The notes under the pieces: generated by a model
What the model was told of the DNA's origin: nothing
Seen by the model: the letters and a program-made list of their open reading frames with translations, nothing else
Database searches by the model: none
Shown here: positions 11,955-55,187 of the stretch, piece after piece
How positions within the stretch are numbered: position 1 is the first letter of the stretch
How the letters are laid out: each line of letters begins with the position of its first letter
Program-made: the position numbers and the translations under genes
DNA from: an uncultured bacterium
Lineage (GTDB): Bacteria > Patescibacteriota > Minisyncoccia > Moranbacterales > UBA2206
Length of the DNA: 64,000 bases
Direction of reading: 5' to 3'
NCBI GenBank assembly: GCA_903937035.1
Contig: CAIZXS010000004.1
Span: forward strand, 4,693-68,692

Positions 11955-13037
11955 ATGAAAATCGGTATTGATGGCTCGCGGGCTTTTTTAAAACAAAGAA
12001 CGGGTGTTGAAGAGTATTCCTATCAGGTGATTAGGCAGTTACGTACGCGCTTGAAAGAGCATCGCGTTATTCTTTATCTGCGAGGGACACAGAGGGTGGA
12101 TTTTTCTGTGCCAAAAAATTGGCAGATTAAAAAGATTCGATTTCCGCGCCTTTGGACGCAAATCGGACTATCCATGGAACTTTTTCTTCATCCAATCGAT
12201 GTCCTTTTTGTCCCGGCACACACTGTGCCGGTTTTTCATCCTAAAAAAACTGTTGTGACAATCCATGGCTTGGAATATGAAATTATGCCAGAGGCGTATT
12301 CTCCTTTCGAGCGATTTTATATGCGCTTCTCGATTAAAAATTCTTGTCGTTGGGCAACTAAGATTATTTGTGTTTCCAAAAACACTAAAAGAGATTTAAT
12401 GAATCTCTACGAGGTTCCGGAAGATAAAATTAATATTGTCTATGAGGGTTATGAAGATAAAACGGGAGAGCTTGATTGGGAAGATGGCAGCGAGGTTGAG
12501 GAAATGAAGCCATATTTATTCTTCATGGGACGCTTGGAAAAACGCAAAAATATTTTAGGCATAGTAGAAGCCTTTGATTTATTCAAAAAAAAGACCAAGG
12601 CTAAGCATAAATTGGTCTTAGGTGGTAAATTTGGTTTTGGAGAGGCTGAGATACGAGAGCGCATCGAAAAGTCCGAGTATAGAAAAGATATTATTATATT
12701 GGGCTATGTGAAGGATGTCAAAAAATGGCAATTGTTTAAAAACGCAGCTGTTTTTCTTTTCCCCACGCTCTACGAAGGTTTTGGCTTGCCTGTCTTGGAA
12801 GCGCAAAGTCAGGGCGTTCCAGTTGTCACTTCCAATACATCATCACTTCCCGAAGTGGCCAATGGGAGCGCGTATTTAGTTGATCCAACAGAGCCAGAAA
12901 TGATTTCTGAGGCGATGATTACTCTCGTACAGAATGAGAAGATGGCTAAGGATATGATTAAAAGAGGCTATGAAAATATCAAGCGGTTCAGTTGGAAAAA
13001 CTGTGCCGATTTGATTGCGACGGTCTTGACGGAATAA
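11955..13037 (+). CDS. glycosyltransferase family 4 (GT-B, GT1-like)
   Basis: C-terminal EGFGLPVLEAQSQGVPVVTS motif typical of GT4 retaining glycosyltransferases. Confidence 0.85.
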   Translation: MKIGIDGSRAFLKQRTGVEEYSYQVIRQLRTRLKEHRVILYLRGTQRVDFSVPKNWQIKKIRFPRLWTQIGLSMELFLHPIDVLFVPAHTVPVFHPKKTVVTIHGLEYEIMPEAYSPFERFYMRFSIKNSCRWATKIICVSKNTKRDLMNLYEVPEDKINIVYEGYEDKTGELDWEDGSEVEEMKPYLFFMGRLEKRKNILGIVEAFDLFKKKTKAKHKLVLGGKFGFGEAEIRERIEKSEYRKDIIILGYVKDVKKWQLFKNAAVFLFPTLYEGFGLPVLEAQSQGVPVVTSNTSSLPEVANGSAYLVDPTEPEMISEAMITLVQNEKMAKDMIKRGYENIKRFSWKNCADLIATVLTE

Positions 13038-18620: not shown

Positions 18621-18814
18621 AGGTTTAGTATGTTTAGTTTATTATCATTTTTTAAGCTTTAAATTCATCGTAAGATTAGTATATCATATTTTTATGTTAT
18701 CCACAGCAGGAAGTCATTTGGCTTGTAGCAAGAATTGTTTTTTTGTTGTATAATTTAAACAAGAGAAAGTTTTAGTTATCTTTTTAATATTTATAATAAA
18801 TTAGAAATAAAAAA

Positions 18815-31300: not shown

Positions 31301-32475
31301 CAAATGGAGGCACTTCCTGTTTGGCGCCAACTAGCAATCTTTGCACCTTGGGCACATTGCAAGGAGCTCCGGTGGTATATTCTGGTACATGGTGGGGATG
31401 GACATGCTTGGGATTGAACGGTGGTGCTAATAAGGTTTGTAGTACAATAATAAACTGCACTAGTCCTTCTTGTGTTGCGAATTTTTCACCAACGAGCTTG
31501 ACTGCTCCGGGAACTTCTTATCTTACATGGACTCCTTCTAATGCTGATAAGATGCTTGGTACATGCTTTGGAATTGGCGCAACAATTCCGGAGGGTGATT
31601 ATGGACTGTCCAATACTGTTGGTTATCCTTTCGCTTTTACTGCCTTGCAAACTGGAACAGAAACTTGTACGTTCACTCCATATATGGGAGCAGTAAAAGG
31701 CGCCCCTTGCTCTGCTAGTGTAGTAGTTAATGATACTTGTGAATGCAGCACGATATTCAGCGGTGGGACACCTTGTCCATCGGGATCAACTTGTGACGGT
31801 TGCCATTGTATTCCCGCTACTTCATATACTTGTATGCCAGTAGCTCCACCTGTTGGTACAACAAAGTGTCCCTTGACTAGAGAAACAGGTTTTAGTTCTG
31901 CTCAGCCATGGACGAATCGCGGAACCTTTTCTGTTTGCACCGGAGCGCTTGGAATATGTGAGTATTATATTCCTAGTGGAACATTCGGTTGTAATCCGGT
32001 CGCTCCACCGGTAGGAACAATAAAATGCCCTGGAACGAGAGAGTCAGGTTTTAGCTCTGCTCAACCATGGACTCCCGTGGGAGCAGTTTCTTCTTGCAAT
32101 GGATTGAGTGGTATATGTGAATATTATACCCCAGCTGGAACATTTGGTTGTAATCCAATAGCGCCACCGGCAGGAGCAACAAAATGCCCCGGAACTCAAG
32201 AGGCGGGTTTTAGTTCTTTGCAACCATGGACAAATAGGGTGACTTTTGGTGCTTGCACTGGTGCAAGCGGAGTTTGTGAATATTATTCTTGTCCATCAGT
32301 GCCTCAATGTTACTATCCAACCACTTGCACTCCTGGTATTTGCGGAACTCAAAATGAAGAATGTCTCCCTGTCTCTCCACCTGGATGCGCTGTTCCAGCT
32401 TGCCTCGCAACTTCTTGCACAGGAACGGTGTATTGTCCTTGCAATTCGGGAGGATGGCAGGAGATTTCTCATTAA
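28399..32475 (+). CDS. giant Cys/Thr/Gly-rich modular surface protein (signal peptide, central TM, tandem Cys-bearing modules)
   Basis: 1358 aa. Signal peptide MKKKLNGGLIIVCIVSFIFSGQLVTAAEP. TM TVLLIVFIILLFLVIAIVAKILF near residue 440. Four ~150-aa modules ending ETCTFTPY.GA.GTPC.ASV, two CG..NG.TSC..PT..LC modules, and three 51-aa C-terminal repeats CNPVAPPVGT.KCPGTRESGFSSAQPWT. Confidence 0.8.
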   Translation: MKKKLNGGLIIVCIVSFIFSGQLVTAAEPSADISPDKALETRREPGGSAGGAIASEQMDVVADINFRSPLLLKQESNKLELFFRLENNYSKSEAGIRYGVRLIKDETLYDERVYSADVLSIEGNSSTQKVFSYQAPSYLAGDFELWLVAKNESGLPLAVLKLEKPIALSGSGEYLEINTDACGLKIEGGGNSKVYSLPQGAPLKPEEDLTFSCEVISHFKEAASIYPLLSTFKYSLYGSSADNDQRGAELVLQPGEKKFVDLTIDKPAAPQTYEARVIFLKSNALAVVSRPVILRYVVSGESAMIQKLDLDKISYQKGEIIDATLLWSGSVGNSDDSHIVNAARKKVTADLAITNQGNQLCAQIQGQALDQNSNTAKFELKSDIDCPNLNVKIILKDEQGKVLAERDLHFQKNKISEGGAQKSSPNNIKKTVLLIVFIILLFLVIAIVAKILFSYKKNKTENLLLLLLLFGALFNWRLQNVGALTLSKPFNSWGAFSYSVNLNKGSGIYNPGEEISVIYDGSAALTGCVNYSGGNTTLLAATNTSGSWSGFGWKGNDQFTDANGCTVSNFGSWSAGNAPSSSGVISLKACITGEGSGGVAANCSGTTSGGGNFDLATGDIYYTVAPPSNPTCEIHFSDSSYTVNNWGPLTWSTYDSTGGTLYCTGLSPILNDPNTATSYTNYGIYLNQTGAVYCTFTPYNGTNAGTPCYASAVVSAVIPTPTCTVSFSDTDIQAPGTVYLTWNSSNADKTIGSCSGIGSPVPAADYGLAYSNYPVAFVATDSGTETCTFTPYIGATAGTPCSASVLVRPRGVCGIANGTSSCTQPTTGLCDSSSTASTVAGSGPWIWTCAGANGGGSVSCSATKSCAPASCHASFSPSSITTTLATPAASVLAWDSTGDSMTVSCTGPMPISPAVNVTNPASGSGSVPFTVDQTGTETCTFTPYNGATPGTTCEATVSVKADAVCGSSNGGTSCLAPTSNLCTLGTLQGAPVVYSGTWWGWTCLGLNGGANKVCSTIINCTSPSCVANFSPTSLTAPGTSYLTWTPSNADKMLGTCFGIGATIPEGDYGLSNTVGYPFAFTALQTGTETCTFTPYMGAVKGAPCSASVVVNDTCECSTIFSGGTPCPSGSTCDGCHCIPATSYTCMPVAPPVGTTKCPLTRETGFSSAQPWTNRGTFSVCTGALGICEYYIPSGTFGCNPVAPPVGTIKCPGTRESGFSSAQPWTPVGAVSSCNGLSGICEYYTPAGTFGCNPIAPPAGATKCPGTQEAGFSSLQPWTNRVTFGACTGASGVCEYYSCPSVPQCYYPTTCTPGICGTQNEECLPVSPPGCAVPACLATSCTGTVYCPCNSGGWQEISH

Positions 32476-37332: not shown

Positions 37333-37722
37333 ATGGAAGAGCAGAAAAAGAAGATCATGATTATCGAAGATGACTATTTTGTTATGGACATCTATCACAC
37401 AAAACTTACACAGTCCGGCTTTGATGTGATTAGTGCAAATAACGGACTTGACGCGTTAAAAAAGTTACAAGAAGAAAAACAAATTCCCGATTTGATTTTG
37501 CTAGACATTATCATGCCCTATCTTGGCGGATTGGAAGTTTTGGAGCGGATCAAAGCCGATGAGCAATTAAAAAGTATCCCAGTAATTTTGCTCACCAATT
37601 TGAGTCAAAAAGCTGAGATTGATAAGGGAATGGGGTTGGGAGCAAAAGATTATTTAATCAAATCTCATTTCACGCCATCAGAAGTTTTGGAAAAAATAAA
37701 TTTACTCATTGGTAATGCTTAA
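37333..37722 (+). CDS. single-domain response-regulator receiver (CheY/PilH-like) embedded between pilB and pilT
   Basis: IEDD, LLDIIMP (phosphoacceptor Asp), LLTNLS and KDYLIK are all canonical. Confidence 0.85.
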   Translation: MEEQKKKIMIIEDDYFVMDIYHTKLTQSGFDVISANNGLDALKKLQEEKQIPDLILLDIIMPYLGGLEVLERIKADEQLKSIPVILLTNLSQKAEIDKGMGLGAKDYLIKSHFTPSEVLEKINLLIGNA

Positions 37723-40148: not shown

Positions 40149-40544
40149 ATGAAAAATAAAAACAAAAAAGGTTTTACGCTGATTGAACTTTTGATCGTGA
40201 TTGCGATTATCGGAATTTTGGCTTCAATTGTGCTCGTTAGTTTGAATAGTGCGAGAACTAAGGCTAAATATGCTTCATTTGAGGCATCGGTTTCGTCTAT
40301 AAAGGGTGTGGCGGTTGTATGTGTTGATGGCGGAGGAGCTCCTAGCACTGCAGCCGCGGGAGCAGCAATTTGCGATGATACTGCAATTACGGACGCTGTT
40401 TATCCAACTTTGCCAATTGGATGTACTAGCGCGGGAGATTTTACTGTAGGCGGAAGTGGTGATGATTGGACAATTACTCAATCATGCGATGCAACGTGTT
40501 CCGGTGTTTGCAGTTCTACTGGTTGCGTTTACACTGGATGCTAG
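40149..40544 (+). CDS. type IV major pilin (prepilin, class III signal peptide)
   Basis: MKNKNKKGFTLIELLIVIAIIGILASIV has G/FTLIE with Glu+5. Cys-rich C-terminal domain (8 Cys). Confidence 0.9.
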   Translation: MKNKNKKGFTLIELLIVIAIIGILASIVLVSLNSARTKAKYASFEASVSSIKGVAVVCVDGGGAPSTAAAGAAICDDTAITDAVYPTLPIGCTSAGDFTVGGSGDDWTITQSCDATCSGVCSSTGCVYTGC

Positions 40545-40611
40545 GGTTATGAAAAATAATGATGGATATGTAATATAAAAAATTTATATAACTAGAAGGA
40601 GAGGTGAATTT

Positions 40612-41067
40612 ATGAAAAATAAAAAATTAAAAGGTTTTACACTGATTGAGCTTTTGATCGTAATCGCGATCATCGGAATTTTGGCTTCGATTGTGTTGGT
40701 TAGTTTGAATGCAGCTAGAGCGAAAGCAAAATCGGCAGCGTTTAAGGCTGGTCTATCCAGTATGATGCCCGCCCTTGCTATGTGTGAGGATATCGGAAGT
40801 ACGGTTACTACTCCGACCGTAGCGAGTCTTACATCTGGAACCGTTAACGTTTGTGCTGGTATTACTACGTCAAAAGTTCCCATGTTGATACCTAAGACAT
40901 GCTCTACTATCGCCGCTGCGAGTATCGTTGGTACTGGTATTGGCGCTGCAGATGCAACTAATTCTGATGGCCTATATTCATTAAGTATGATATGTAATGT
41001 TGGAACAGGAACTGTTTCTGCTGCTTGTACCGAGGCTGGATGTACATATACTGAAGTCGGACTATAG
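40612..41067 (+). CDS. type IV pilin paralog 2
   Basis: MKNKKLKGFTLIELLIVIAIIGILASIVLVSLNAAR is near-identical at the N-terminus to the upstream pilin. Divergent C-terminal domain. Confidence 0.9.
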   Translation: MKNKKLKGFTLIELLIVIAIIGILASIVLVSLNAARAKAKSAAFKAGLSSMMPALAMCEDIGSTVTTPTVASLTSGTVNVCAGITTSKVPMLIPKTCSTIAAASIVGTGIGAADATNSDGLYSLSMICNVGTGTVSAACTEAGCTYTEVGL

Positions 41068-41111
41068 CTCGCTTAGGGAAGTTGATTATCTTACTGATTG
41101 AAAATGTTGTC

Positions 41112-41145
41112 TCCCGCTCCGTTTAGCTTGATTGCGCGGAGCGGG
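41112..41145 (+). terminator. hairpin (9-bp stem CCCGCTCCG/CGGAGCGGG) downstream of pilin genes
   Basis: ctcccgctccgtttagcttgattgcgcggagcggg followed by ttggtatatt. May attenuate read-through from the pilin genes. Confidence 0.4.
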
Positions 41146-41232
41146 TTGGTATATTGATGAGTTTTTTAATTTGTTAAAAAAGCGAATTGCTAACCGTTTT
41201 TTCTGTTTATAATTTTTTCTGGTTGTCTTCTT

Positions 41233-42930
41233 ATGCCTTCTTTTCTTTCCGTCTTGCTAGGTAAAGTTAAATCTACATATTCGAATTATCCGGCACTTAT
41301 TTCCATTGGTGTTTTTTTGGTTGTTGCGTTTTTTTATTCATTGGTATATTTGGATAATTCGGGGATATCAACGATTGATGACCATTTTTTCTATTTTGAA
41401 TATGCAAAAATGGTAAAAAATGAAGGATGGGACGGAGTAAAAACTTTCGAAGGGGGCTATCTGACGAAAAAGGAAAATGGTCAAAGTAAATTTGGACTTT
41501 CTTTATTTAATATCGTCAACATTCCTTTTACGTATATTAAGAATGAAATAGATGGATTGAAATTGAGTGATATATTTGTTGCCTCTAGCGCATTGGCGCT
41601 TTTCTATTACGTATTAAGAAAAGCAAAAATTAATTATCCTTTATTTTTTACTTTTTTTCTCATTGTTTCTCCTTTTTTCATGCATCGATTATTAATGGGT
41701 AGGCCTTATGTATTGACGACTAGCTTGATTTTTTTAGAAATTTTTCTGGCAAGCAGGAAAGAATATAGAATATTGTTTTTGGTGACCCTGGTGCATCTTT
41801 TTTGGCACAATTCGACTTTTTGGCTCCCGCTTGTTATGGTTGGTGCGGTTGAAATGGCAAGATTTTTGGTTGTGCAAAAGTTTTTTTATAAAAATATTTT
41901 TGCAGTTTCAGTCGCGACTATCTTGGGAATGGCTTTTTTGCCTAATTTTTTTAATCTTTGGACTTGGCTTAGAACGATTTTTATTGTGCAAGAGGGAATA
42001 ATGGATAATTCCCTGAAGGTGTCAGGCGTGGAATTGCAAACCAGTGATGCTTTCAGTGGCCGTTTTATTGGAATTGACATTTTTTTTATTGTGGCTGTGG
42101 CGAGTATCACAATCGTCATATTTTTATATTTGAGACAGCGGAAGATATTGAGTGATGATATGAAGAGAGATTCTGCATTGGCGGAATACTATATTATGGC
42201 ATATGCCTCTTTTATATTTTTTCTGATCGTTGTGTTTGGAACAATGATTATTTCTGGAAGATTTTATGATTATTATCAGACAACGCTAGTTTTTTTATTT
42301 GCGGTTGTTGTGACGATATTGCAAAAAGAAAGATTGATTATTTTTAAGGATGTGTTGCATAAATACATTATTGTTGGCTCAACAGTTTTTATTTTATTGG
42401 TTTTATTGAATAATTTCATTGAATTGAAGAAGACGATTGGTAATATACAGTATGGAAATCTAATCGAGGCGGCAAAATGGATAGAATTGAATTCGGATGG
42501 GAAGGAGTCGGTTTTTATCCACAATTGGAGTGACTTTCCTAGACTGTTTTTTGGTAGCAGTAAAAATGTTTATACTGCAGGGATGGAACCTACGGCCCTC
42601 AAGCAATATAATGAGGTGCTCTATTGGCGATGGTATAATATGTATAGGTATAATTTTTATTGCGAGGAGTTGAGGGACTGTGAAGATAATTTGAGAATGG
42701 TTAGCGATAAATTGGCCAAGCAGAAGCCGGAATTGGGCAAGGAATATGCCAAGGAAAGTGGTCGGAAAATGATCGTCTCGATTAGAAAAGAATTTGGCTC
42801 TCGTTTTATTGTTTCTGATAATGAAAATTTTAGTCGAATAATTGATTCAAATCCAGATTTGATTGAAGAGCATTTTGAGGCAAAGTCTGGCGAAGATGTT
42901 AGCAATGTGGATGTATTTAAGCTCAAATAA
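41233..42930 (+). CDS. polytopic membrane protein, candidate GT-C-type glycosyltransferase / oligosaccharyltransferase-like
   Basis: 565 aa, ~12 predicted TMs. DD in the first extracytoplasmic loop (STIDDHFFYFEY). ~130-aa soluble C-terminal domain. First gene of the glycosylation island next to the pilins. Confidence 0.6.
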   Translation: MPSFLSVLLGKVKSTYSNYPALISIGVFLVVAFFYSLVYLDNSGISTIDDHFFYFEYAKMVKNEGWDGVKTFEGGYLTKKENGQSKFGLSLFNIVNIPFTYIKNEIDGLKLSDIFVASSALALFYYVLRKAKINYPLFFTFFLIVSPFFMHRLLMGRPYVLTTSLIFLEIFLASRKEYRILFLVTLVHLFWHNSTFWLPLVMVGAVEMARFLVVQKFFYKNIFAVSVATILGMAFLPNFFNLWTWLRTIFIVQEGIMDNSLKVSGVELQTSDAFSGRFIGIDIFFIVAVASITIVIFLYLRQRKILSDDMKRDSALAEYYIMAYASFIFFLIVVFGTMIISGRFYDYYQTTLVFLFAVVVTILQKERLIIFKDVLHKYIIVGSTVFILLVLLNNFIELKKTIGNIQYGNLIEAAKWIELNSDGKESVFIHNWSDFPRLFFGSSKNVYTAGMEPTALKQYNEVLYWRWYNMYRYNFYCEELRDCEDNLRMVSDKLAKQKPELGKEYAKESGRKMIVSIRKEFGSRFIVSDNENFSRIIDSNPDLIEEHFEAKSGEDVSNVDVFKLK

Positions 42931-43845
42931 ATGAATGATAAAATTGTAGTAGCAATTCCTTGCTACAATGAAGAACTGACAATTAGTAAGGTGATAGTGG
43001 ATTTTAAAAGAGAGCTGTCAGAAGCGAAAATTTTGGTTGTGGATAATAATTCGAAAGATCAAACGGCGCGTGTAGCAAGGGAAGCTGGGGCGGAGGTCAT
43101 TAGTGAAAAAAGACAGGGCAAGGGTTTTGCTGTGCAAAAAATATTTGATGAGTTTTGTGGTGACGTACTTATTTTGGTTGATGGTGATGATACTTATGAT
43201 GCTAGAAATGTGCAAAGCCTATTACTGCCGGTATTAAATGATGAAGCTGATATGACGGTGGGGAATCGAATTCATTCAAAAAATGAAGGCGCTTTTACTG
43301 GTAGTCATTGGCTGGGAAATAAATTTCTCACTAAATCGCTGAACTTCTTGTTTGGAACAAAACTCCGTGACATGGAATCAGGCTTTCGAGTAATTGATAA
43401 GAAATTCGTGAATTCAAGTGCGCTTTTGGCTGGTGGCTTTGGAATTGAACCAGAATTAACCATCCAAGCTTTAGAAAGAGGGATGCGAATAAGGGAGGTT
43501 CCGATAAAGCTTTATCCAAGAAAAGAAGGAAGCCATTCAAAACTTAACGCTGTGAGAGATGGGACAATAGTTTTATACACAATTGTCTCGTTATTTCGGG
43601 ATTATAAGCCATTGCAATTTTTTACTTTGTTAGCATCCATCTTTTTTTTGATAGGCGTACTGTTGGGCTGGTTTAGTATCCGGGATTACGTGCATACGGG
43701 TATTGTTTCGCGCATCCCGACGTTGATTGTTTCTGGGTTATCTATGATTTCGGCATTTATTAGTTTCATTGCTGGGTTGATTTTAAGTTCGATTAAGCGG
43801 AGACACGAAGAGTTGCTGGTGATTTTAAGGAGAAGCTCTAAATAA
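42931..43845 (+). CDS. GT2 polyprenyl-phosphate glycosyltransferase (GtrB/ArnC/DPM1-like)
   Basis: VAIPCYNEELTI...VVDNNSKDQT...VDGDDTYD GT-A motifs plus two C-terminal TMs characteristic of GtrB-like enzymes. Confidence 0.85.
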   Translation: MNDKIVVAIPCYNEELTISKVIVDFKRELSEAKILVVDNNSKDQTARVAREAGAEVISEKRQGKGFAVQKIFDEFCGDVLILVDGDDTYDARNVQSLLLPVLNDEADMTVGNRIHSKNEGAFTGSHWLGNKFLTKSLNFLFGTKLRDMESGFRVIDKKFVNSSALLAGGFGIEPELTIQALERGMRIREVPIKLYPRKEGSHSKLNAVRDGTIVLYTIVSLFRDYKPLQFFTLLASIFFLIGVLLGWFSIRDYVHTGIVSRIPTLIVSGLSMISAFISFIAGLILSSIKRRHEELLVILRRSSK

Positions 43846-43865
43846 TTTATTAAAACTTCCTGTGT

Positions 43866-44789
43866 ATGGAAAAAATCAGTTGTCCTATCTGTGGTGGCGA
43901 TGGTTTTGACTTACTGTTTAAAGCGCAAGATAATATTTGTCATATTGATGGTGAATTCGATATTGTTAAATGCGAGAAGTGCTCGCTTATTATTACCAAT
44001 CCAAGGCCCGACAAAGAAGAGATTAATCGTTATTATCCCAAGGAATATCAATGCTATAATTTGAATCATAGCAGAACTGAGTTGGTGGTTAAGTTGAGAA
44101 GATTCCTTGGAAGATTTACTGACCTATTCTATAGCGAAACAATCATCTTGCCATTAGAAGAAACAACGCCGATTATTCTTGAAATTGGTTGTGGCGGCGG
44201 GAATTTTTTGTATGAGTATAGTCGTCTGAATCCACAACATAAAATTATAGGTTCGGATTTCAATCTAGAGGTCATAAAAGCTTTGAAAAAACAAAATCTA
44301 GATGTTTTCCAGTCTGATTTGACCTCAATAGCATTGGAGACAGGCCATGTTGATTGTGTATATGGCTGGATGGTTTTGGAGCATGTGCACGACATCAATA
44401 AGGCTCTTGGTGAAATTGGCCGAGTTTTGAAAAAGCAGGGTAAATTTATTTTCTCAATACCTAACGCGGCAAGTTGGGAATTTAAGTTATTTCGGGGTGA
44501 TTGCTATTCAAATCATGTGCCTAACCACTTATATCATTTCACGCCAAAGACAATCAAACAGCTTTTGAAAAAAAATGGATTTAGGATTGAGCGAATCTTA
44601 TACCAAAAAACTTTGCGAGATGCCGTTGAAAGCTTCAGGCTTGTATGCGCGAGAAAGAAATACTATAGATTGGAGTCTGTTTTGAGTTGGAATTTGGTGC
44701 TATTTGTGCTTACTTATCCTTTGGCATTTGTATTGTCAATTTTCCATAAATCTTCCCGAATGACTATTATTGCTAAAAAATATGACTAA
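43866..44789 (+). CDS. class I SAM-dependent methyltransferase with N-terminal Cys4 zinc ribbon
   Basis: CPICGG...CEKCS zinc ribbon; ILEIGCGGGNF motif I. Confidence 0.8.
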   Translation: MEKISCPICGGDGFDLLFKAQDNICHIDGEFDIVKCEKCSLIITNPRPDKEEINRYYPKEYQCYNLNHSRTELVVKLRRFLGRFTDLFYSETIILPLEETTPIILEIGCGGGNFLYEYSRLNPQHKIIGSDFNLEVIKALKKQNLDVFQSDLTSIALETGHVDCVYGWMVLEHVHDINKALGEIGRVLKKQGKFIFSIPNAASWEFKLFRGDCYSNHVPNHLYHFTPKTIKQLLKKNGFRIERILYQKTLRDAVESFRLVCARKKYYRLESVLSWNLVLFVLTYPLAFVLSIFHKSSRMTIIAKKYD

Positions 44790-45600
44790 TGGACTTGTGA
44801 GTATTCTTATCGTGGCCTATAATGCTGAAAAGTATATCAAAGACACGATAGTAAGTTGCCTGAATCAGACATATGAGAAAACTGAGTTATTAATTTTGGA
44901 TAATAATTCTTCCGACAAAACTATTGAGATTATTAGATCAATGAAAGATAGTCGGATCAAGCTGTTCATTGGGAGTGAGAATCTCGGACCATTTGCTGGC
45001 TTGAATTATTTATTGGATAGGGCAGCAGGAGAATATGTGGCCATACAGGACCATGATGATTTGTGGTTTCCTGAAAAAATTAAAAAGCAAATTACATTAC
45101 TTAGTCGAAACAAAGACATTATTGCTTGCGGAGCTAGAACCTTCTATTTTTACGAAAATTTCGGCTTATTTATTTTGAATAATAAGAAATTTTTGGTCGA
45201 TTGCTATGATCACACATCCCTTTTCTTTAGGAATATGGGTTTTCGTTATCAATATAAGCACGTCTTGCCGGATCAGCATTTTCAAAAAGTTATTTTGAGT
45301 GAGAAAGGAAAAAGGGTCTGTTTGCAGGAGATCCTCGCTATTCATCGTATTAGAGATGATGGCAAAAATTATTCGCGATACATATTTAAATTTACATTAA
45401 AAAATATTCGAGATTTAATTGAGATGAATGGCGTGAGCGTGAAAAATCTATTTTTTTTTCTTACTTTGGTTGTGAATAGAATCTTTCCCCCATCTCTGTC
45501 TTATCGTCTGGCGTTTAGGATTTTCAAATCCAATTTGATTCAGTTGACCATGGAAGAATTCAAAATGGATTATCCTGATTCTAATCTTTTTATTCGGTAG
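44770..45600 (+). CDS. glycosyltransferase family 2
   Basis: VSILIVAYNAEKYIKDTIVSCLNQTY, LILDNNSSDKT and DHDD fit the GT-A fold. Confidence 0.85.
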   Translation: MLKNMTNGLVSILIVAYNAEKYIKDTIVSCLNQTYEKTELLILDNNSSDKTIEIIRSMKDSRIKLFIGSENLGPFAGLNYLLDRAAGEYVAIQDHDDLWFPEKIKKQITLLSRNKDIIACGARTFYFYENFGLFILNNKKFLVDCYDHTSLFFRNMGFRYQYKHVLPDQHFQKVILSEKGKRVCLQEILAIHRIRDDGKNYSRYIFKFTLKNIRDLIEMNGVSVKNLFFFLTLVVNRIFPPSLSYRLAFRIFKSNLIQLTMEEFKMDYPDSNLFIR

Positions 45601-45622
45601 GAAAGTGATGATTCGCACGTAG

Positions 45623-46768
45623 CTAAATGATGAGTTTTTTGTAGGTATTGATTGATTTATCCCAGCTAAATTTCTTAATTACATTGCCTCTCATTTTTTT
45701 CCCAAGAAGAACTCTTTTTTCTTTATCAGAAGCGATATTTTCTAGCACTTCCTTTATTCTGGTTATATTTGGTATTTCCATAAGAGTATCCTCTCTTAGG
45801 TCAATAACTTCATCCGCTCCTTCATTTGGCGTGGCGATGACTGCGCAGCTGCAATACATTGCTTCTAAAAGGGACGTGGAAAGTCCGCCACCGTGCAGGG
45901 CGGAATGAATGTATATGTCCGACACCTTCATTATCCCAATTGCTTTTTCTCTCGACATGCTTCCAAGTAGGATGGTTGATTCATCGCATAATTTTTGTAG
46001 TCTAGAGAAATCTTCTCCATCACCAATGACAATAAAAATTATTTGTTTTTTTATATTTTCCGAGAGGTTTTTGATTGCCTCTATGCTGTATTCAATCCCT
46101 TTCCATTTATAAAGTCTGGCTACGGTCAGGATGATTATTTTATCTTTAAATCTGTTTTTGAAATCAATATCGGGATGGATGGAATCTATCGAGTCTAAAT
46201 TTAGTCCGCGGTAAATTATTGGAGAATGTCTTTTGTCAAACTTATGGACAAATTTCTGAACTGCCCTTGAGATGGAGATATTTAAATCTGATGATCGGAA
46301 AATGAGTCTACCGATCGTTAGGTCATATATTTTTGCGATGAATGATTTTAGTGGGCTTGATAGGATAGTGAAGTTGGAAGTGTGCTCGATGTGGATCCAT
46401 CTGATTCTTTTGATTTTGGCGAGCAACATGGCCAGAAGCGATGTGTTGAAAAATCTAATACGTGAGATGATAAGCTCGTAGTCTGTTTTGAATAGGCCAA
46501 GATATAGTTTCCAAAACTTAAATTTCCAAAATTTTGGCAGGGGATAGTTGGGAACAATTTCAAAGGCCGGAAATCTGATGATGTCTAGGTGTTCATTGAT
46601 TTTTTCATATTCGGCCGAGTCTTTGATGAGTAGGCAGGTAAAAACAGTGATTTTTGTATTTTCACTAGCTAGGTGTCTATTGAACTCATCGGCATGACTG
46701 CCTAGCCCTCCAATGCAGGGGGGGTATATCGCAGTAAAAACAAGTATTTTCATGGTATTTTTAGTCAA
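45623..46768 (-). CDS. glycosyltransferase family 4
   Basis: HGGGLSTSLLEAMYCSCAVIAT C-terminal GT4 motif. Confidence 0.85.
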   Translation of the reverse strand: MTKNTMKILVFTAIYPPCIGGLGSHADEFNRHLASENTKITVFTCLLIKDSAEYEKINEHLDIIRFPAFEIVPNYPLPKFWKFKFWKLYLGLFKTDYELIISRIRFFNTSLLAMLLAKIKRIRWIHIEHTSNFTILSSPLKSFIAKIYDLTIGRLIFRSSDLNISISRAVQKFVHKFDKRHSPIIYRGLNLDSIDSIHPDIDFKNRFKDKIIILTVARLYKWKGIEYSIEAIKNLSENIKKQIIFIVIGDGEDFSRLQKLCDESTILLGSMSREKAIGIMKVSDIYIHSALHGGGLSTSLLEAMYCSCAVIATPNEGADEVIDLREDTLMEIPNITRIKEVLENIASDKEKRVLLGKKMRGNVIKKFSWDKSINTYKKLII

Positions 46769-48653
46769 AATATTTTCTAAACCAATTTTCTAAAATTATC
46801 ATCGACCAGATTTTATGGGATAGGTCAACCGAGGTATTCTGTTGAATATGGAGCAGCTTTTTCACAGTAGCTTCGTTGAAGATATTTCTATTTCTAGTTC
46901 TTTCGGAAAGTAATAGGTCATTAGAATAATCTTTCATCTGATTTTTAAGCCAAATATTCAGGGGTGTTTCAAAGCCTTTTTTGGACCGGTTAATTATTTG
47001 ATCAGGCAAGAGGTCTTTCAACGCTTCCTTCAAAATCCATTTTGTTTGATTGAAGTTTTTAATCTTTAGGTTGGACGGGATCTTGGCTGTTAGCTCAATA
47101 AACTCATGGTCTAGAAAGGGCGATCGTGTTTCCAGGGCAACAGACATGCTGGCAAGATCCACTTTTGTCATTAGGTCGTCTGGTAGATAGGTGGCGAAAT
47201 CGGCATAGAGAGTTTGATCTAATTTGTTTTCAGTTGCCGATTCATTGAATTTATCGACTATCAGATCAAGACTATTTTCTCTCGATGTGATTTTTTGAAA
47301 GTTTTCGGTGAATAAATTATTTTCAATATGATTATTTTGGCGATACATGTAGCTTGCATAGCGCTTTCGATAAGCTAGTGGCAGATAACTTAAGAAAAGA
47401 AATATCTTAGACAGTAGTTCGCTTTTTATATTTTCAAGGGGAATCCTGGCAATAATATTGGCCGGGAGTTTGTTAAAAAAACGCAAGTAATCAAGTTGAA
47501 GGGACAGTTTTTGGATGGTGTGTCTGAAATATCCGGCGAAGTTTTCATCTCCGCCGTCTCCTGACATAGCAACTGTGACGTGTTCGCGGGTTAATTTGCT
47601 TAAATAATATGTTGGGATGGCGCTGGAATCAGCAAAGGGTTCTTCGTAGAGACGGACAAGTTCAGGTAGGATTTCCATCGCCTCGGGCTTGACGATAAAC
47701 TCGGTGTGATCAGTTTTGAATTTATGGGCTACTATTTTTGCGTACTCCAGCTCATCATATTTTTTTTCCGAAAATCCAATGGAAAAAGTTTTGATTGGCG
47801 TGGGGCTGAATTTGCTCATCATTCCAATGATGGCGCTAGAGTCAATTCCTCCCGAGAGGAAAGCACCCAGAGGAACATCGGCGATCATGCGCAGTTTCAC
47901 GGATTCCTCCAATTTATTGATAATTTTTTCTTTCCAGCCGCCGATAGATAGGTCTAATTTTTCGGAATAATCTAGTTTCCAATAGCGCTCAAGCTTGGTC
48001 TGGTTTGTTTTGAGATCGATTAATAAATAGTGGGCTGGTTCAAGTTTTTTGATATTTTTAAATCCAGTAAATGGCGCTGGACAATATTGAAACGTTAAAT
48101 AATGGCGGATAGCCACGTAGTCTGGTTCTTTTTTGTAATCCGTTTGGGTTAGGATTGCCTTGAGCTCTGATGCGAAAATGAAGATCTTGTCATCAAGGTA
48201 ATATTTGAAGGGTTTTTTTCCGACTCTATCTCTGGCGCAGAATAGGGTTTTTTCTTTGTCGTCATAGATGGCGAAAGAAAACATCCCTCGTAGATGTTGG
48301 AGACAATCGGTGCCGTATTTGTGATATAGCGCCATGATTACCTCTGTGTCTGTATCTGATTTGAAGGTGTATATTTTTTCTTTTTGTAGATTTTTTTTTA
48401 AGGCTTGAAAATTATATATTTCGCCATTGAATACAATCCAATAGCGATTCATGTAGTTCATTGGCTGATGTCCGAAATGAGAGAGGTCAATGATGGATAA
48501 TCTTTGATGTCCGAGTCCAATTTTTTGGTTAGGGGAGATGTATGTTCCACTATCATCTGGTCCGCGATGGGCGATAGCCAAATTCATTTTTTCCATATCT
48601 CCAGCTGAAACAGTCCCAGTGTTAAGATAAATTTTTCCTGTGATTCCACACAT
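46761..48653 (-). CDS. asnB: asparagine synthetase B-type glutamine amidotransferase
   Basis: MCGITGKI N-terminal nucleophile, SGGIDSS PP-loop, 630 aa. Embedded in the glycosylation cluster, so likely a sugar/glycan amidotransferase paralog. Confidence 0.85.
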   Translation of the reverse strand: MCGITGKIYLNTGTVSAGDMEKMNLAIAHRGPDDSGTYISPNQKIGLGHQRLSIIDLSHFGHQPMNYMNRYWIVFNGEIYNFQALKKNLQKEKIYTFKSDTDTEVIMALYHKYGTDCLQHLRGMFSFAIYDDKEKTLFCARDRVGKKPFKYYLDDKIFIFASELKAILTQTDYKKEPDYVAIRHYLTFQYCPAPFTGFKNIKKLEPAHYLLIDLKTNQTKLERYWKLDYSEKLDLSIGGWKEKIINKLEESVKLRMIADVPLGAFLSGGIDSSAIIGMMSKFSPTPIKTFSIGFSEKKYDELEYAKIVAHKFKTDHTEFIVKPEAMEILPELVRLYEEPFADSSAIPTYYLSKLTREHVTVAMSGDGGDENFAGYFRHTIQKLSLQLDYLRFFNKLPANIIARIPLENIKSELLSKIFLFLSYLPLAYRKRYASYMYRQNNHIENNLFTENFQKITSRENSLDLIVDKFNESATENKLDQTLYADFATYLPDDLMTKVDLASMSVALETRSPFLDHEFIELTAKIPSNLKIKNFNQTKWILKEALKDLLPDQIINRSKKGFETPLNIWLKNQMKDYSNDLLLSERTRNRNIFNEATVKKLLHIQQNTSVDLSHKIWSMIILENWFRKYFD

Positions 48654-48728
48654 AGAATGATCGAATTATGCTATACTGAAGATATTGTTTAGCTTATATG
48701 TAATTAGTCTATCAACTCTGTCGCTTTT

Positions 48729-49520
48729 ATGCAAAATAATACAATCGATATCGAGGTATGCGAGGGTTTGGTTGTGAAAAGAACTATTAAAGAAATCATC
48801 TCCGAGAGAATGAATCCGCGAATATGGCAGTGGGCATATTTAAGCCTTCGGGCGTTGCTTAGGGAAGTGAAGATTTTTTCCGGGATGCTTGAGCGAGAGA
48901 GAGCTGAAAAAATTCTTGATCTGGGCTGTGGGGTGAAGCCGTACCGGTCTCTATTCCCAGAGGTAAAAGCGTATGTTGGTTTCGACGTTAGCAAGAATAG
49001 TAGTGCAGATTTTTTTGGGTATAACTGGGACCTTCCTTTTGGTGAGAGCGAATTCGATGCTCTGATTTCGACTCAAGTATTGGAGCATACATCAAAAATA
49101 TCTGAGACTATCAAGGAAATTGGGCGGGTTGTGAAAAATGATGGGCTGATTTTTATTTCGGCGCCGCTGGCCTTTCCTGAACATGAAATTCCTCATGATT
49201 ATTATCGGTTTACTCAATATGGGCTCAGGGAGTTGTTTAAAGGTTTCGAGGTGATTCGGATTGTTCCGCTTAGTGGTTACATTAAAACTCTCATAATTCT
49301 TTGGAATAATTTTTTGCATTATTTACCAGGATCAAAATATTGGCTTTCCCCCCTTTTTATTATTAATAATTTATTGGCTCTTGTGATTGACAATGTTGCT
49401 TTATTGGTCTCGTCTATGTCGTCCAAAATGAGCGGTGGGGCAGTTATTAAGGAAATTTATGCCAAGTATTATGCTAGCTTCACTGAAAGTTATGTGATTG
49501 TCTTGAGAAATAAAAAATAA
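48729..49520 (+). CDS. class I SAM-dependent methyltransferase with C-terminal TM
   Basis: ILDLGCGVKPY motif I, FISAPLAFPE motif, C-terminal hydrophobic segment. Confidence 0.75.
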   Translation: MQNNTIDIEVCEGLVVKRTIKEIISERMNPRIWQWAYLSLRALLREVKIFSGMLERERAEKILDLGCGVKPYRSLFPEVKAYVGFDVSKNSSADFFGYNWDLPFGESEFDALISTQVLEHTSKISETIKEIGRVVKNDGLIFISAPLAFPEHEIPHDYYRFTQYGLRELFKGFEVIRIVPLSGYIKTLIILWNNFLHYLPGSKYWLSPLFIINNLLALVIDNVALLVSSMSSKMSGGAVIKEIYAKYYASFTESYVIVLRNKK

Positions 49521-49666: not shown

Positions 49667-50452
49667 ATGCTTATCATTTTTTTTCTTTTTGGTCTGATTA
49701 TTGGCAGTTTTCTCAATGTCGTTGTTTATCGTATTCGCACGGCAGAAACAATAATGGGGCGCTCCCATTGTCGGCAATGCAAAAAAACTATCCGTTGGTA
49801 TGATAATATCCCGGTTTTGAGTTTTGTCCTTTTGAAATTTAAATGTCGTGATTGTGGGGAAAAGATTTCTTGGCAATATCCTTTGGTGGAGTTGCTCACG
49901 GGCGTTGTTTTTGCGCTTTTGGCAAATCAATACTTTATTCTAGAAAATCCTGTTACCTGGCTTATCACTGGTGTGATGATTGCTCTTGCTAGCGCGCTCT
50001 TGGTAATTTTCATCTACGACATATTATACATGGAGATTCCCAATTTAGTTCTTTGGCCAGCGATCATTTTGGCTTTGATTTTCAATCTCTACCTTGATTT
50101 TGGACAAATATTTTCAACTGTCTGGGAGCGAATGTCAGTTTCTGGGGTTATGGCTAGCGGAGGCGCATTTTTGTTTTTTTTCTCCTTGTCCTATTTTTCA
50201 AAAGAAAAATGGATGGGAATGGGTGATGCTTATCTCGTGATCCTGCTCGGGCTCATTTTGGGTTGGCCGAAAATTCTTCTGGGACTTTTTCTGGCTTTTG
50301 CGATTGGTGCTATTTATGGTATAATTCTTATTGGAATGAAGAAGAAAGATATGAAGAGTCAGCTTCCCTTTGCTCCATTTTTAATTGTCGGAACATTTTT
50401 TGCTCTTTTTTACTATGCTCCAATTGTGGGCTGGTATCTGGGCTTATTTTAG
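49667..50452 (+). CDS. pilD: prepilin peptidase (A24 family)
   Basis: N-terminal GSFLNVVVYRI, tetracysteine CRQC...CRDC, polytopic, conserved Asp-containing GMGDAYL. Confidence 0.9.
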   Translation: MLIIFFLFGLIIGSFLNVVVYRIRTAETIMGRSHCRQCKKTIRWYDNIPVLSFVLLKFKCRDCGEKISWQYPLVELLTGVVFALLANQYFILENPVTWLITGVMIALASALLVIFIYDILYMEIPNLVLWPAIILALIFNLYLDFGQIFSTVWERMSVSGVMASGGAFLFFFSLSYFSKEKWMGMGDAYLVILLGLILGWPKILLGLFLAFAIGAIYGIILIGMKKKDMKSQLPFAPFLIVGTFFALFYYAPIVGWYLGLF

Positions 50453-52316: not shown

Positions 52317-55187
52317 ATGAAGATTCAAAAAAACAAACGAGGAAGTTTCATGATTGGGGTTCTAATCATGCTTTTGGTGATTTCAGCGATTTCAATTGCG
52401 ATTGTCAACCGCGCAATTCAAGGAACGACCCTTGCGCTTGATTCCAAAAAAGGCTATAGCGCCTATCAGGCTTCAGACGCTGCTGCAGAATTATTTTTGA
52501 ATAATCTGAAGGCATTGGACAATGAGCTGACCGCAAGAATTCCCGAAAACGCGCGTTACAATGAAGCGGGTTTTTGTGATGGGACTACTATAAAATGTTT
52601 TGATGCAACCTCTCCTGTGCCATCGCAAGTCACCGCTGGCTATCTCTCGGAAGTATATAAGCTCCAAAGTCAAAGCGTGGATGGTAGTGGTGGTTTAAAT
52701 CGTAAGATTCAAGCGGACTTAAGTGATCGGATCAATAGTGGATTGGGAAGTGGTAATTTTACTGTAGCAAATTGTGGGGATGGCGTCGCTCCTTGCACAT
52801 GGAATAAGTGTGATATAAAGCTGACCGTCAATCCCAATGCTGACGCAGCTGTAGTGAAAAAAATTAAAGATTATGAAGTGAGAAAGTCAATGCAGGGAAG
52901 TTTGAGGGCTGATTATACTATTCCCGGTAATGGCTGGTGGATAACAACGAATAGGGATGCTTTCGATGTATTTGTTCCGTTCAGATTATCTGCCACAACG
53001 CCTAATATAATACTTAAAAACGGAGATGAGAAAATTAGTGGAGCGCTTTTTGGTTCTCCTGGCTCATTGGCTAATTCTGGGGGGCAATATGGTGAGGATT
53101 ATTTTTTCACAATCAAAGCGCGAAATAAATATCCATTGAGCCTTGATTCGCTTTATTTGGATACGAGTGGAACTGGAGTCGGAACAACAGATAAGAAGGT
53201 GACGATTTCGACCTTTGATTGTGACACAGGCGATCTTTTAGGTGGACTTAAATGTGTCAAGCTCTGTACTAGCCCCGGGCAAGTTAATTGTCAACCGGTG
53301 GGAACCATAACAGCGACACAATCATATAATTGCTGTAATGGCACCGAGTGTTTTCAGCCTGATCCTAATTGGACGCCAGAACCAGGAGAAAATTGTGCAT
53401 TGCAAAAATGTGTTAACAGAGAGGGCTATTTAACACCTTCTTCTACTCCTTATCCAAGCGTTACTGATACTGTGGGAATTGGTTTCGCTGCTGGTAGTGG
53501 GGTGGTATCAGGGCTTAATGAAGGTATTACTACCGGTCTTGGTTGGTGTAAAACAGCGCAGGCTTGTGTGCCTGGAGATGCTTGCTTGCATCCATATCGA
53601 ACGGTAGGGTATTGCTTGACTTGTCCCACGGCAGCTGAAGGTTCTGATCCATCAATAAAACTCAATTCTAGTTCATGGTCGCCACAGAATAAAATAGATG
53701 TTGATATGAATCCGGCAAATGGTCGTTATAATGGAGTGTTATTTACCTCTTATCATACAACTGAGTCAAATCCATCACAACCCCGATGTTGCAAGCAGGA
53801 ATGCCCAGTTCCGTCTGGTTCGCCAACTACGATTGTGGAATCTCCAGACACATATTGCGCGCTGAATCCTTTTAAGAAGGCTACTTGGGATACTCATGAT
53901 ACGACTTGCGCAAATACTAATAATTGTGGGCCATATACTATAACAAAGAGATGTGAATTAACGTGTGCGGCAAATTATAATCCTTTTATCGAGGCTGCTG
54001 ACCCTGAATATCCGAGTGGTAAATGTTGTTCTGAAACTTGTTCTTCTGCAGCAAACCCTCCATTTGTATCGCATGATAATGCGCCGACTGTTACGGAGGG
54101 AGATTGTGATTATGAATTAGATCCCTATCATGGAACGAGTTGGACCAATACTAGTACTTGTGCGTCTGATACAAAATGTGCAGCAGCGGGTGTTCCTGGG
54201 TATACCGTTACGGAGCGTTGTAGCTTAGTTTGCGATTATGATTTTGTAAAATATGGCGTTACGAATGCTGATCATTTTGTTGCTCCTAACAAGGCTTGCT
54301 GTTATCATAAATGCTCGGACTGGACTGAACCAGCTTGTACCCAGGCTATCCCGGAGCATAGTACTCGTATTGGCAAATATTCCTGTACTCCTCAAAGTTG
54401 TGGGGATTATGTTATAACTAATAACTGTGACTTTCTGTGTGATTATAACTATACTCGTTCAGGTTCAAGCTGTGTTCCTAATACTCGATCTGCGAGTTGC
54501 TCCTCTCAGCCTTCAAATACCGTCTGGAATACCACTTCAACATTTACTCAGACATGGAACGGGCATACGGCTGCATGGGAGCCTGCCACTAAGACTGCTG
54601 TGTATGATATAAATCCGACGGTAGGTGACTGTCATGTTAGGTGTGCGACCAATTATACTTGGGATGGCTGGAATTGTATTGGCAATACCCAAACATATAC
54701 GTGCTCTGCATCTAAACCTAGTAACACAGTCTGGAACCCATCTTCCTATGCTCAAACTTGGTATGGATATTGGAGTCCTGCTGCTGACCCTTGGCCGAGA
54801 TATAGCGTACCAGCATGTAGTGGTGAATGTTGTTATAAGTGCGCGTCGGGGTATACTTGGGATACATGGAATAGTATTTGTGCTTCAAGTACGCCTACGT
54901 GCACATATAGTTGGAATCCTACAACTATCACTACGAGTCAAGGCGTGACGTATACTTGGACATCTACAGTTGCGCTGGGACTAAAATCTGAGTGCTTTAA
55001 GAAGGTTAGTGGCGCATGGTCATCGCTTGGCGTCCCTGCGCCTATGGGCGCTCTTTCCGGGAGTGGATATATTCCCCCTGCCACACTTGGTGTTGGTTCA
55101 TATTATTGCCGCATGGACGCGTATTTAGATGCTGTATATAATTCATATGCTACGAGTTGTTATACTCAAGAATTAATTGTTAACTAG
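52317..55187 (+). CDS. large Cys-rich pilin-like protein (GspK/PilX-like N-terminus lacking Glu+5; candidate pilus-tip adhesin)
   Basis: 956 aa. N-terminus KRGSFMIGVLIMLLVISAISIAIV is pilin-like with Gly at +5. C-terminal ~600 aa has >60 Cys in repeated Trp/Thr-rich modules (SNTVWN..TW.G.W, C..Y.IT..C.L.C.YN). Confidence 0.75.
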   Translation: MKIQKNKRGSFMIGVLIMLLVISAISIAIVNRAIQGTTLALDSKKGYSAYQASDAAAELFLNNLKALDNELTARIPENARYNEAGFCDGTTIKCFDATSPVPSQVTAGYLSEVYKLQSQSVDGSGGLNRKIQADLSDRINSGLGSGNFTVANCGDGVAPCTWNKCDIKLTVNPNADAAVVKKIKDYEVRKSMQGSLRADYTIPGNGWWITTNRDAFDVFVPFRLSATTPNIILKNGDEKISGALFGSPGSLANSGGQYGEDYFFTIKARNKYPLSLDSLYLDTSGTGVGTTDKKVTISTFDCDTGDLLGGLKCVKLCTSPGQVNCQPVGTITATQSYNCCNGTECFQPDPNWTPEPGENCALQKCVNREGYLTPSSTPYPSVTDTVGIGFAAGSGVVSGLNEGITTGLGWCKTAQACVPGDACLHPYRTVGYCLTCPTAAEGSDPSIKLNSSSWSPQNKIDVDMNPANGRYNGVLFTSYHTTESNPSQPRCCKQECPVPSGSPTTIVESPDTYCALNPFKKATWDTHDTTCANTNNCGPYTITKRCELTCAANYNPFIEAADPEYPSGKCCSETCSSAANPPFVSHDNAPTVTEGDCDYELDPYHGTSWTNTSTCASDTKCAAAGVPGYTVTERCSLVCDYDFVKYGVTNADHFVAPNKACCYHKCSDWTEPACTQAIPEHSTRIGKYSCTPQSCGDYVITNNCDFLCDYNYTRSGSSCVPNTRSASCSSQPSNTVWNTTSTFTQTWNGHTAAWEPATKTAVYDINPTVGDCHVRCATNYTWDGWNCIGNTQTYTCSASKPSNTVWNPSSYAQTWYGYWSPAADPWPRYSVPACSGECCYKCASGYTWDTWNSICASSTPTCTYSWNPTTITTSQGVTYTWTSTVALGLKSECFKKVSGAWSSLGVPAPMGALSGSGYIPPATLGVGSYYCRMDAYLDAVYNSYATSCYTQELIVN

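Follow-up and report, generated by a model that had tools for sequence, protein, structure and literature searches.

A GT-C-fold membrane protein and a polyprenyl-phosphate glycosyltransferase between pilin genes and pilD: a candidate pilin O-glycosylation module in a Patescibacteria genome

In a 64,000-nucleotide stretch of DNA from an uncultured bacterium (contig CAIZXS010000004.1; the whole 64-kb stretch is referred to as the window), seven genes at 41233-49520 are located in a type IV pilus (T4P) gene cluster between two prepilin genes and the prepilin peptidase gene pilD (Table 1), and are interpreted here, with moderate confidence, as a glycosylation module, extracytoplasmic and dependent on a lipid carrier, with the adjacent pilins as the most likely targets of O-glycosylation. 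The first two genes, encoding a membrane protein with a GT-C glycosyltransferase fold (hereafter GT-C) and a glycosyltransferase of the polyprenyl-phosphate hexose synthase type (GT2a), very probably constitute a module working with a lipid-linked donor; the other five encode two methyltransferases (MT1 and MT2), two glycosyltransferases (GT2b and GT4) and an AsnB-type amidotransferase (AsnB). The nearest public relatives of the window were metagenome-assembled genomes labelled Candidatus Moraniibacteriota (Parcubacteria group, Patescibacteria/candidate phyla radiation (CPR)). Few surface machines are conserved in CPR bacteria; T4P are one of them, and serve host binding and motility in cultivated Saccharibacteria. 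An original prediction, made by a model from the sequence, had described the seven open reading frames as an inserted glycosylation island for one methylated, possibly amidated glycan of the adjacent pilins; by Pfam and NCBIfam scans, all seven were present at their coordinates with the domain content that it had given.

No match of the 565-aa GT-C protein was obtained in Pfam or NCBIfam, and comparison with PDB sequences using either a 6-sequence or an 85-sequence profile returned nothing meaningful. A word-indexed search gave six homologues only, and its repetition with the 85-sequence profile recovered close homologues already known and nothing further; the family emerged from an exhaustive hidden Markov model search, which gave 1941 cluster representatives at E<=1e-3, of which 195 reached E<=1e-30. 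The AlphaFold model from the shallow alignment (6 sequences) had a pLDDT of 70.7, and that from the deep alignment (85 family members) had a pLDDT of 93.1 and a pTM of 0.93. When the latter model was compared with the PDB by Foldseek, the top 22 matches were all GT-C enzymes (E 1.7e-7 to 5.6e-2, TMq 0.40-0.59), the best being STT3 of yeast and human (E 1.7e-7, TMq 0.58), with PglB and DPY19 (TMq 0.59), ALG12, ALG9, AftA, ArnT and Pmt4 among the others; the 6-sequence model likewise retrieved GT-C enzymes. As modelled, the protein thus has the GT-C fold that had been predicted. The alternative raised with that prediction, a transporter or flippase, was rejected on the fold, since transporters appeared in the Foldseek list with TM values of only ~0.1 and the matches were GT-C enzymes.

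The protein had been described as carrying 12 transmembrane helices, a DD motif in the first external loop and a soluble C-terminal domain. The motif and the domain were confirmed: D49-D50-H51 stands directly after the first transmembrane helix and is invariant among close homologues, with D50 kept in at least 90% of the 85 members, and the C terminus is formed by an alpha/beta domain of ~160 aa (~405-565) with an invariant Cys pair (C477/C483). For the membrane part, 11 transmembrane helices and an interfacial helix (239-257), with the N terminus inside and the C terminus outside, fit better according to hydropathy, the positive-inside rule and the helices of the AlphaFold2 (AF2) model; a 12-helix topology would leave three loops rich in Lys/Arg on the outer side and the Cys pair on the inner. 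With 11 helices, every conserved polar residue, the C-terminal domain and C477/C483 would be outside the cell. Further near-invariant residues are R157, E267 (in the flexible loop 258-281), R343 (within the motif SGRFYD), and W416, W432, F435, W465 and C477, the last five all in the C-terminal domain.

Judged by sequence, the window GT-C is not a member of the STT3, PglL/TfpO, PMT or ArnT families. Neither it nor its 85 relatives matched Wzy_C (at E<=0.1) or PMT/PMT_2 in Pfam, and hhalign of the GT-C family profile against the PMT_2 protein encoded elsewhere in the window (16764-18620) gave a probability of 0.3%. The archaeo_STT3 model (TIGR04154) partially matched 6 of the 85 relatives, the best of which, P0091 (1.2e-10, 40 bits), fell far short of the 450-bit cut-off and aligned only to profile positions 391-532; the Dpy19 model matched one relative, weakly; and EpsG (PF14897) gave weak matches in 14 of the 85 (best 8.5e-9) and none for the window protein, weak precomputed matches being available also for P0003, P0004 and P0006. 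These matches point toward GT-C enzymes, and none amounts to membership. The term oligosaccharyltransferase-like, used in the original prediction, therefore suits the fold and not the sequence, in which WWDYG is not present (the conserved stretch there reads NWSxFP) and no STT3/AglB model is matched.

The GT2a product had been predicted to be a GtrB-like polyprenyl-phosphate GT2, and model matches together with the nearest solved structure agreed with this. It matched the AglJ model (TIGR04182; 7e-67, residues 5-295, 225.9 bits, below the cut-off of 325), the dolichyl-phosphate (Dol-P)-hexose transferase model NF041391 (96.5 bits, cut-off 375) and also the PpgS and ArnC models, its resemblance to AglJ and Dol-P-hexose synthases being at the family level only. 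The sole solved relative found by sequence was the Dol-P-mannose synthase of P. furiosus (5mlz, 7.6e-9), and two C-terminal transmembrane helices (230-248 and 266-284) are arranged as in GtrB and DPM1-type enzymes. The stop codon of the GT-C gene directly abuts the start codon of GT2a (42930/42931), and a GT2a-type gene adjoins or lies near GT-C in nearly all of ~20 distinct genomic contexts of family members (25-66% identity). Four relatives (P0058, P0065, P0094 and P0124; 729-810 aa) are natural fusions of an N-terminal GT2 domain and GT-C, the fused domains being of the GT2a and not of the GT2b type (phmmer 1e-18 to 1e-34). The abutting codons, the near-constant neighbourhood and the four fusions are strong evidence that GT2a and GT-C work together, and this coupling, with the known chemistry of DPM1/GtrB/AglJ-type enzymes, indicates that GT-C most likely uses a polyprenyl-phosphate sugar.

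The association with pilin genes extends across distant relatives, being kept down to ~30% identity. GT-C was encoded between pilin genes and pilD in 11 of the ~20 contexts (the window, L001, L009, L007, L004, L012, L014, L017, L020, L025 and L027), at identities down to 25-40%, and beside a T4P cluster in two more. It was the first gene after the last pilin, and on its strand, in all 11 except L020, where an opposite-strand GT2-methyltransferase gene intervenes, and L027, where it is the last gene before pilD. The interval is minimal in L007, with GT-C and a GT2 as the sole genes between pilD and a pilin fragment (a C-terminal one resembling the end of window pilin 2), and consists in L017 of GT-C and one small unknown gene, without any GT2. 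GT-C and GT2a are accordingly conserved residents across the clade, and the description as an inserted island applies to the accessory genes, which are the variable part. In L014 (9965-13449 and 17721-18974), two tandem paralogous GT-C copies were observed after four pilin genes, and three GT2s, one methyltransferase and a membrane protein resembling Wzx (Polysacc_synt) share this interval up to pilD.

The pilins and GT-C also diverge together. Between the window and L001/L009, protein identities were 92-99% for PilM, PilB, PilT, PilC and PilD, 85-92% for AsnB, GT4 and MT2 (MT2 85-90%), 84% for GT2a, 65% for GT-C, 68% for pilin 2 and 46-47% for pilin 1, with no counterpart of MT1 and GT2b. By blastn against the same two loci, pilC was 87-90% identical and pilin 2, GT-C and GT2a ~72%; 43824-45647 (MT1, GT2b) gave no similarity, and from GT4 onward identity was again 87-94%. 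In place of MT1 and GT2b, a different methyltransferase of ~199 aa was observed in L001 and L009, a cassette swap. Within GT-C the divergence is even along the protein (56-73% per region), and thus looks like replacement of a whole block and not like local adaptation. The ranking of machinery above pilins and GT-C was also seen for L012 versus L014 (machinery 78-93%, pilins 52-77%, GT-C 60%) and L017 versus L012 (62-85%, 45-48% and 32%, respectively), and was less clear for the L025/L012 pair. The block in the window resembles in its divergence the allele-specific groups of pilA plus accessory genes in P. aeruginosa, a likeness that is not proof.

As acceptors, pilin 1 (leader MKNKNKKG/FTLIEL, 20.6% Ser+Thr, 8 Cys) and pilin 2 (21.9% Ser+Thr, 6 Cys) were inspected for glycosylation signals. 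No N-x-S/T sequon is present in either, nor was the sequon enriched in 20 GT-C-linked pilins (29 observed versus 25.4 +/- 4.2 in shuffles, P = 0.22), and N-glycosylation was rejected for the window on these two grounds; without sequons and with ~21% Ser+Thr, any modification of the window pilins would most simply be O-linked. In pilin 1, a Gly/Ala/Ser/Thr-rich stretch from the first to the second Cys, VDGGGAPSTAAAGAAI, varies strongly from relative to relative (hypervariable) and is a reasonable candidate glycosylation site. In the pilins of L012, L014, L004, L017 and L025, N-x-S/T was observed recurrently at mature positions ~54-62, within the loop bounded by the first and second Cys. Of the predicted pilin glycosylation, the GT-C fold, the GT2 type and the conserved pilin linkage were upheld, and synteny and co-divergence suggest, somewhat better than evenly in our estimate, that the pilins are the acceptor or one of the acceptors.

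The proposed pathway would begin with GT2a, which, going by its family, would use a nucleotide sugar to load polyprenyl phosphate with a hexose at the cytoplasmic face. The lipid-linked sugar may optionally be tailored or extended at the membrane by MT1, MT2, GT2b, GT4 and AsnB, and would then be flipped to the outer face, a step for which no gene was found in the window. Outside the membrane, GT-C would transfer the sugar to its acceptor, most likely Ser/Thr of the two upstream pilins, and the pilins would be modified in the membrane, before assembly.

The five accessory genes are less constant than the pair of GT-C and GT2a. MT1 has an N-terminal zinc-ribbon-like CxxC...CxxC arrangement (C6/C9/C36/C39) and a C-terminal transmembrane helix (272-290), MT2 has one C-terminal transmembrane helix (209-227), and methyltransferases are frequent among related GT-C contexts, homologues of MT1 adjoining GT-C in L012 and L027. 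GT2b, a homologue of which was found in L019, is of the type of polysaccharide and teichuronic-acid pathways, with matches to the TuaG, EpsE and PglI models well below cut-offs. The GT4 gene lies 3' of AsnB on the same strand, overlapping or nearly abutting its end, and GT4 homologues stand beside GT-C in L004, L015, L016 and L019 (1e-104 to 1e-111); the closest PDB chain to GT4 was PimB' (3oka, 3.6e-10, C-terminal half only). AsnB scored above the cut-off of TIGR01536 (494.9 bits, cut-off 267.1) and below that of the exopolysaccharide-associated TIGR03108 (584 bits, cut-off 817), and accompanies GT-C in the window, L001, L009 and L024 only (L024 is an incomplete contig resembling these); it possibly amidates a uronic acid, and could instead be the asparagine synthetase of the cell. 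L004 additionally carries nucleotide-sugar enzymes, and L004 and L020 encode small EamA-like (EamA/SMR-like) proteins with four transmembrane helices, which are candidate flippases of the ArnE/F kind. A GT2-methyltransferase fusion protein adjoining GT-C in L020 (8312-9853, minus strand) and a sulfotransferase in the GT-C cluster of L018 (3868-4539, plus strand) hint at methylated or sulfated sugars in products of the GT-C family. With regard to the predicted single methylated and amidated glycan, only GT-C and GT2a are invariant, and MT1 and GT2b do not occur in the closest relatives; we place less confidence in all seven genes serving one glycan than in the pilin acceptor.

The T4P cluster is complete in the window and lies on the plus strand. 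The position of the response-regulator receiver gene between pilB and pilT is kept in the CPR pilus clusters of L001, L009, L012, L014, L017, L020 and L025. Three minor-pilin-like genes stand 3' of pilD and are directly followed (52317-55187, plus strand) by a gene for a 956-aa Cys-rich protein (58 Cys, no Pfam match), which is ~80% identical in L009, has a related gene at the equivalent position of L027, and may be a pilus-associated adhesin. Just 5' of the pilus cluster, two genes encode proteins of 829 aa (25678-28167, minus strand) and 1358 aa (28399-32475, plus strand), both without Pfam match. The G+C content of 41233-49520 is modestly lower than that of its flanks (34-39% versus ~40-43%), and a terminator/promoter scan of the gap between pilin 2 and GT-C gave counts at chance level. 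Outside the cluster, the GT4 genes predicted at 11955 and 13717 and the GT39/ArnT-like gene predicted at 16764-18620 (minus strand) were borne out; the last encodes a PMT_2-type GT-C (PF13231), and has genes for an FtsQ-type POTRA protein and for DNA polymerase III delta' as neighbours.

Table 1. Pilus genes and candidate glycosylation genes of the window, with the domain matches or models behind each assignment
Feature	Position	Strand	Basis or remark
pilM	33107	+	followed by two small pilN/O-like genes
pilB	35639	+	
Response-regulator receiver gene, stand-alone	37333-37722	+	between pilB and pilT
pilT	37729	+	
pilC	38891	+	
Prepilin 1, 131 aa	40149-40544	+	PF07963 3.9e-11, TIGR02532; candidate acceptor
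Prepilin 2, 151 aa	40612-41067	+	PF07963 2.7e-09; candidate acceptor
GT-C-fold membrane protein, 565 aa	41233-42930	+	AF2 model and Foldseek
GT2a, polyprenyl-phosphate hexose synthase-type, 304 aa	42931-43845	+	PF00535 1.5e-21
MT1, S-adenosylmethionine (SAM) methyltransferase, 307 aa	43866-44789	+	PF13489 (Methyltransf_23) 8.4e-23
GT2b, soluble GT2, 276 aa	44770-45600	+	PF00535 3.5e-31
GT4 glycosyltransferase, 381 aa	45623-46768	-	PF00534 4.9e-27, PF13439
AsnB-type glutamine-dependent amidotransferase, 630 aa	46761-48653	-	PF00733 6.7e-102, PF13537 2.2e-42
MT2, SAM methyltransferase, 263 aa	48729-49520	+	PF13489 4e-10, PF08241 7.1e-10
Prepilin peptidase PilD, downstream boundary	49667-50452	+	PF06750 (A24_N_bact) 1.4e-33, PF01478 (Peptidase_A24) 1e-13
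Fast-diverging block: pilins, GT-C, GT2a, MT1, GT2b	40265-45647		DNA ~72% or no similarity, flanks 87-94%

Several observations weigh against the pilins as acceptors of the module. No pilus gene was found within ~10 kb in 7 of the ~20 contexts (some of these contigs are short), and in a sister subfamily (L015, L016 and L019) the GT-C/GT2a/GT4 triad is preserved in the absence of pilus genes. The T4P-embedded GT-C members form mostly one clade in a distance tree, so the 11 contexts are not independent events. In L001, the closest relative (17222-20482; also in L002 and L010), an AAA/DUF4143 ATPase and two toxin-antitoxin pairs of the HepT/MNT kind (Polbeta nucleotidyltransferase) sit between the last methyltransferase and pilD; this unrelated cargo identifies the interval 5' of pilD as an insertion hotspot, and part of the pilin linkage could therefore come from a site permissive for insertion. 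Enzymes determining surface glycans or serotypes evolve fast in general, so the divergence of GT-C is not specific to pilin recognition. In the window, phmmer searches started from EamA-like, DUF2304 and Wzx-like proteins that relatives encode gave no flippase candidate, and the accessory genes may not act in the same pathway as GT-C and GT2a.

The same enzymology could instead be directed at another acceptor, namely an envelope glycopolymer, a lipoglycan or an S-layer protein, by a logic like that of Gtr-type or CsbB/YfhO-type side chains or of the actinobacterial lipomannan pathway (GT4, Ppm1 and GT-C), with an incidental position in the pilus operon. The contexts and the triad without pilus genes and the insertions in L001 fit this explanation, as does PimB', the nearest solved relative of GT4, which is a phosphatidylinositol mannoside mannosyltransferase, and glycans are the usual substrates of three-component GT-C systems (PMC11127046). 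However, even at deep divergence GT-C keeps its place between pilins and pilD, usually directly following the last pilin, whereas every accessory gene turns over; the interval holds only GT-C and a GT2 in L007, and GT-C is one of two genes in L017; and GT-C and the pilins diverge in step as one block. We therefore regard an envelope acceptor as unlikely, with a weight that is still appreciable.

A true oligosaccharyltransferase pathway resembling the archaeal Agl system, in which GT2a initiates an oligosaccharide on polyprenyl monophosphate, GT2b and GT4 extend, the methyltransferases and AsnB tailor, and GT-C transfers the glycan en bloc to pilin, would accord with STT3 and PglB as the best structural matches, with the partial TIGR04154 matches and with AglJ as the best model for GT2a, and likewise with the cytoplasmic GT2b and GT4, which have no phosphoglycosyltransferase partner in the island, the membrane tethering of both methyltransferases and the Wzx-like flippase of L014. 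It is improbable in view of the conserved stretch of GT-C, which reads W-S-x-F-P with no WWDYG-like motif, the score of the best archaeo_STT3 match, far below the cut-off and confined to a short part of the profile, the pilins without sequon or enrichment, and the minimal L007 locus and the GT2/GT-C fusions, which suggest a basal state with a monosaccharide donor.

That the 565-aa protein is a Wzy/EpsG-like repeat-unit polymerase, a flippase or a transporter, as the weak EpsG matches of relatives might suggest, is very improbable, because the window protein itself has no EpsG match, neither a Wzx in the island nor an initiating phosphoglycosyltransferase in the window was found, Foldseek gave only GT-C enzymes using lipid-linked donors, and a conserved loop-1 DDH motif with a 160-aa external domain is to our knowledge not typical of Wzy.

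With pilin glycosylation as the preferred reading, a wider proposal can be made tentatively, and we hold it at somewhat less than even: the GT-C family (~1900 cluster representatives), remotely STT3/DPY19-like in fold, may include a clade that is the dedicated pilin glycosyltransferase of Parcubacteria-group CPR, inherited and exchanged with pilin alleles as one cassette comprising the pilins, GT-C, the polyprenyl-phosphate-sugar synthase and swappable tailoring genes. If so, the diversity of pilus glycans would track that of pilins in bacteria whose episymbiotic lifestyle depends on pili, and GT-C enzymes would have been recruited for pilin glycosylation a second time, independently. If the pilins are the acceptors, the co-divergence of the block suggests that the pilus surface varies in a serotype-like manner, which would bear on host recognition and on escape from phages; if an envelope glycan is the acceptor, a new GT-C family whose donor partner is clear would remain, a more ordinary result. 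The conserved pair of GT-C and donor synthase between pilins and pilD leads to a specific, testable enzyme-substrate hypothesis, and adds an uncharacterised GT-C family to the enzymes possibly glycosylating proteins. The literature searched contained no account of a GT-C linked to pilins in CPR bacteria, and a study of Saccharibacteria T4P leaves pilin glycosylation for future confirmation (PMC11623550).

The closest functional precedent, by analogy with its published description, is TfpW of P. aeruginosa group IV, a 646-aa GT-C pilin arabinosyltransferase with a C-terminal tetratricopeptide repeat (TPR) domain, which has ~11 predicted transmembrane helices, requires a DDX motif in its first periplasmic loop, ends in a large C-terminal domain outside the membrane, is encoded directly 3' of pilA, O-glycosylates pilin Ser/Thr, and receives its D-arabinofuranose donor from homologues of the mycobacterial decaprenyl-phosphate pathway (phosphoribosyl pyrophosphate (PRPP)-transferase and DprE1/E2) (10.1101/2020.04.19.049825). 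The window GT-C similarly follows pilin 2 on the same strand at a distance of 166 bp and has the DDH motif in loop 1, but it is shorter (565 aa), its alpha/beta C-terminal domain has a Cys pair and no TPR match, no DprE-like genes are present in the island, where a DPM1/GtrB-type GT2 adjoins instead, and the host belongs to the CPR and presumably has a single membrane. In three-component systems (GtrA/GtrB/Gtr*, ArnC/ArnE-F/ArnT, GT136), a polyprenyl-phosphate-sugar synthase is combined with a GT-C acting outside the membrane (PMC11127046). The window likewise has a GT2 with a GtrB-like C-terminal membrane anchor and a GT-C, and relatives have the EamA/SMR-like protein with four transmembrane helices (L004, L020) or the Wzx-like protein (L014), whereas a small GtrA/SMR-type flippase was not found in the window, and those systems modify glycans or lipid A and not pilins, the acceptor proposed here being a protein.

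The fold is shared with STT3/PglB/AglB (GT66) and DPY19 (TMq 0.5-0.6), all of which glycosylate proteins. The acidic residue of loop 1, E267 and R343 follow one another in what we take to be the order of the PglB catalytic residues, a correspondence of order only. In contrast to GT66 enzymes, the window GT-C has ~11 and not 13 transmembrane helices, no WWDYG and no Pfam STT3 match, and the pilins beside it carry no sequons. PglL/TfpO (PilO) enzymes also glycosylate pilins, tfpO lying directly 3' of pilA; they belong to the Wzy_C family and use undecaprenyl-diphosphate-linked oligosaccharides as donors, whereas the window GT-C has no Wzy_C match. In the Agl system of Haloferax volcanii (AglJ, AglG, AglP, AglB), an AglJ-type GT2 starts the glycan on polyprenyl monophosphate, glycosyltransferases and a SAM methyltransferase tailor it, and a GT-C of family GT66 transfers it to surface proteins, N-linked at sequons, archaeal pilins and archaellins being among the AglB substrates; the window differs in that GT2a is below the AglJ cut-off and GT-C is not GT66. 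A pilin-adjacent GT-C with a lipid-linked donor is already known, and what is new at this locus is a GT-C family not covered by existing models, its occurrence in a CPR lineage and its cassette-like co-divergence with the pilins.

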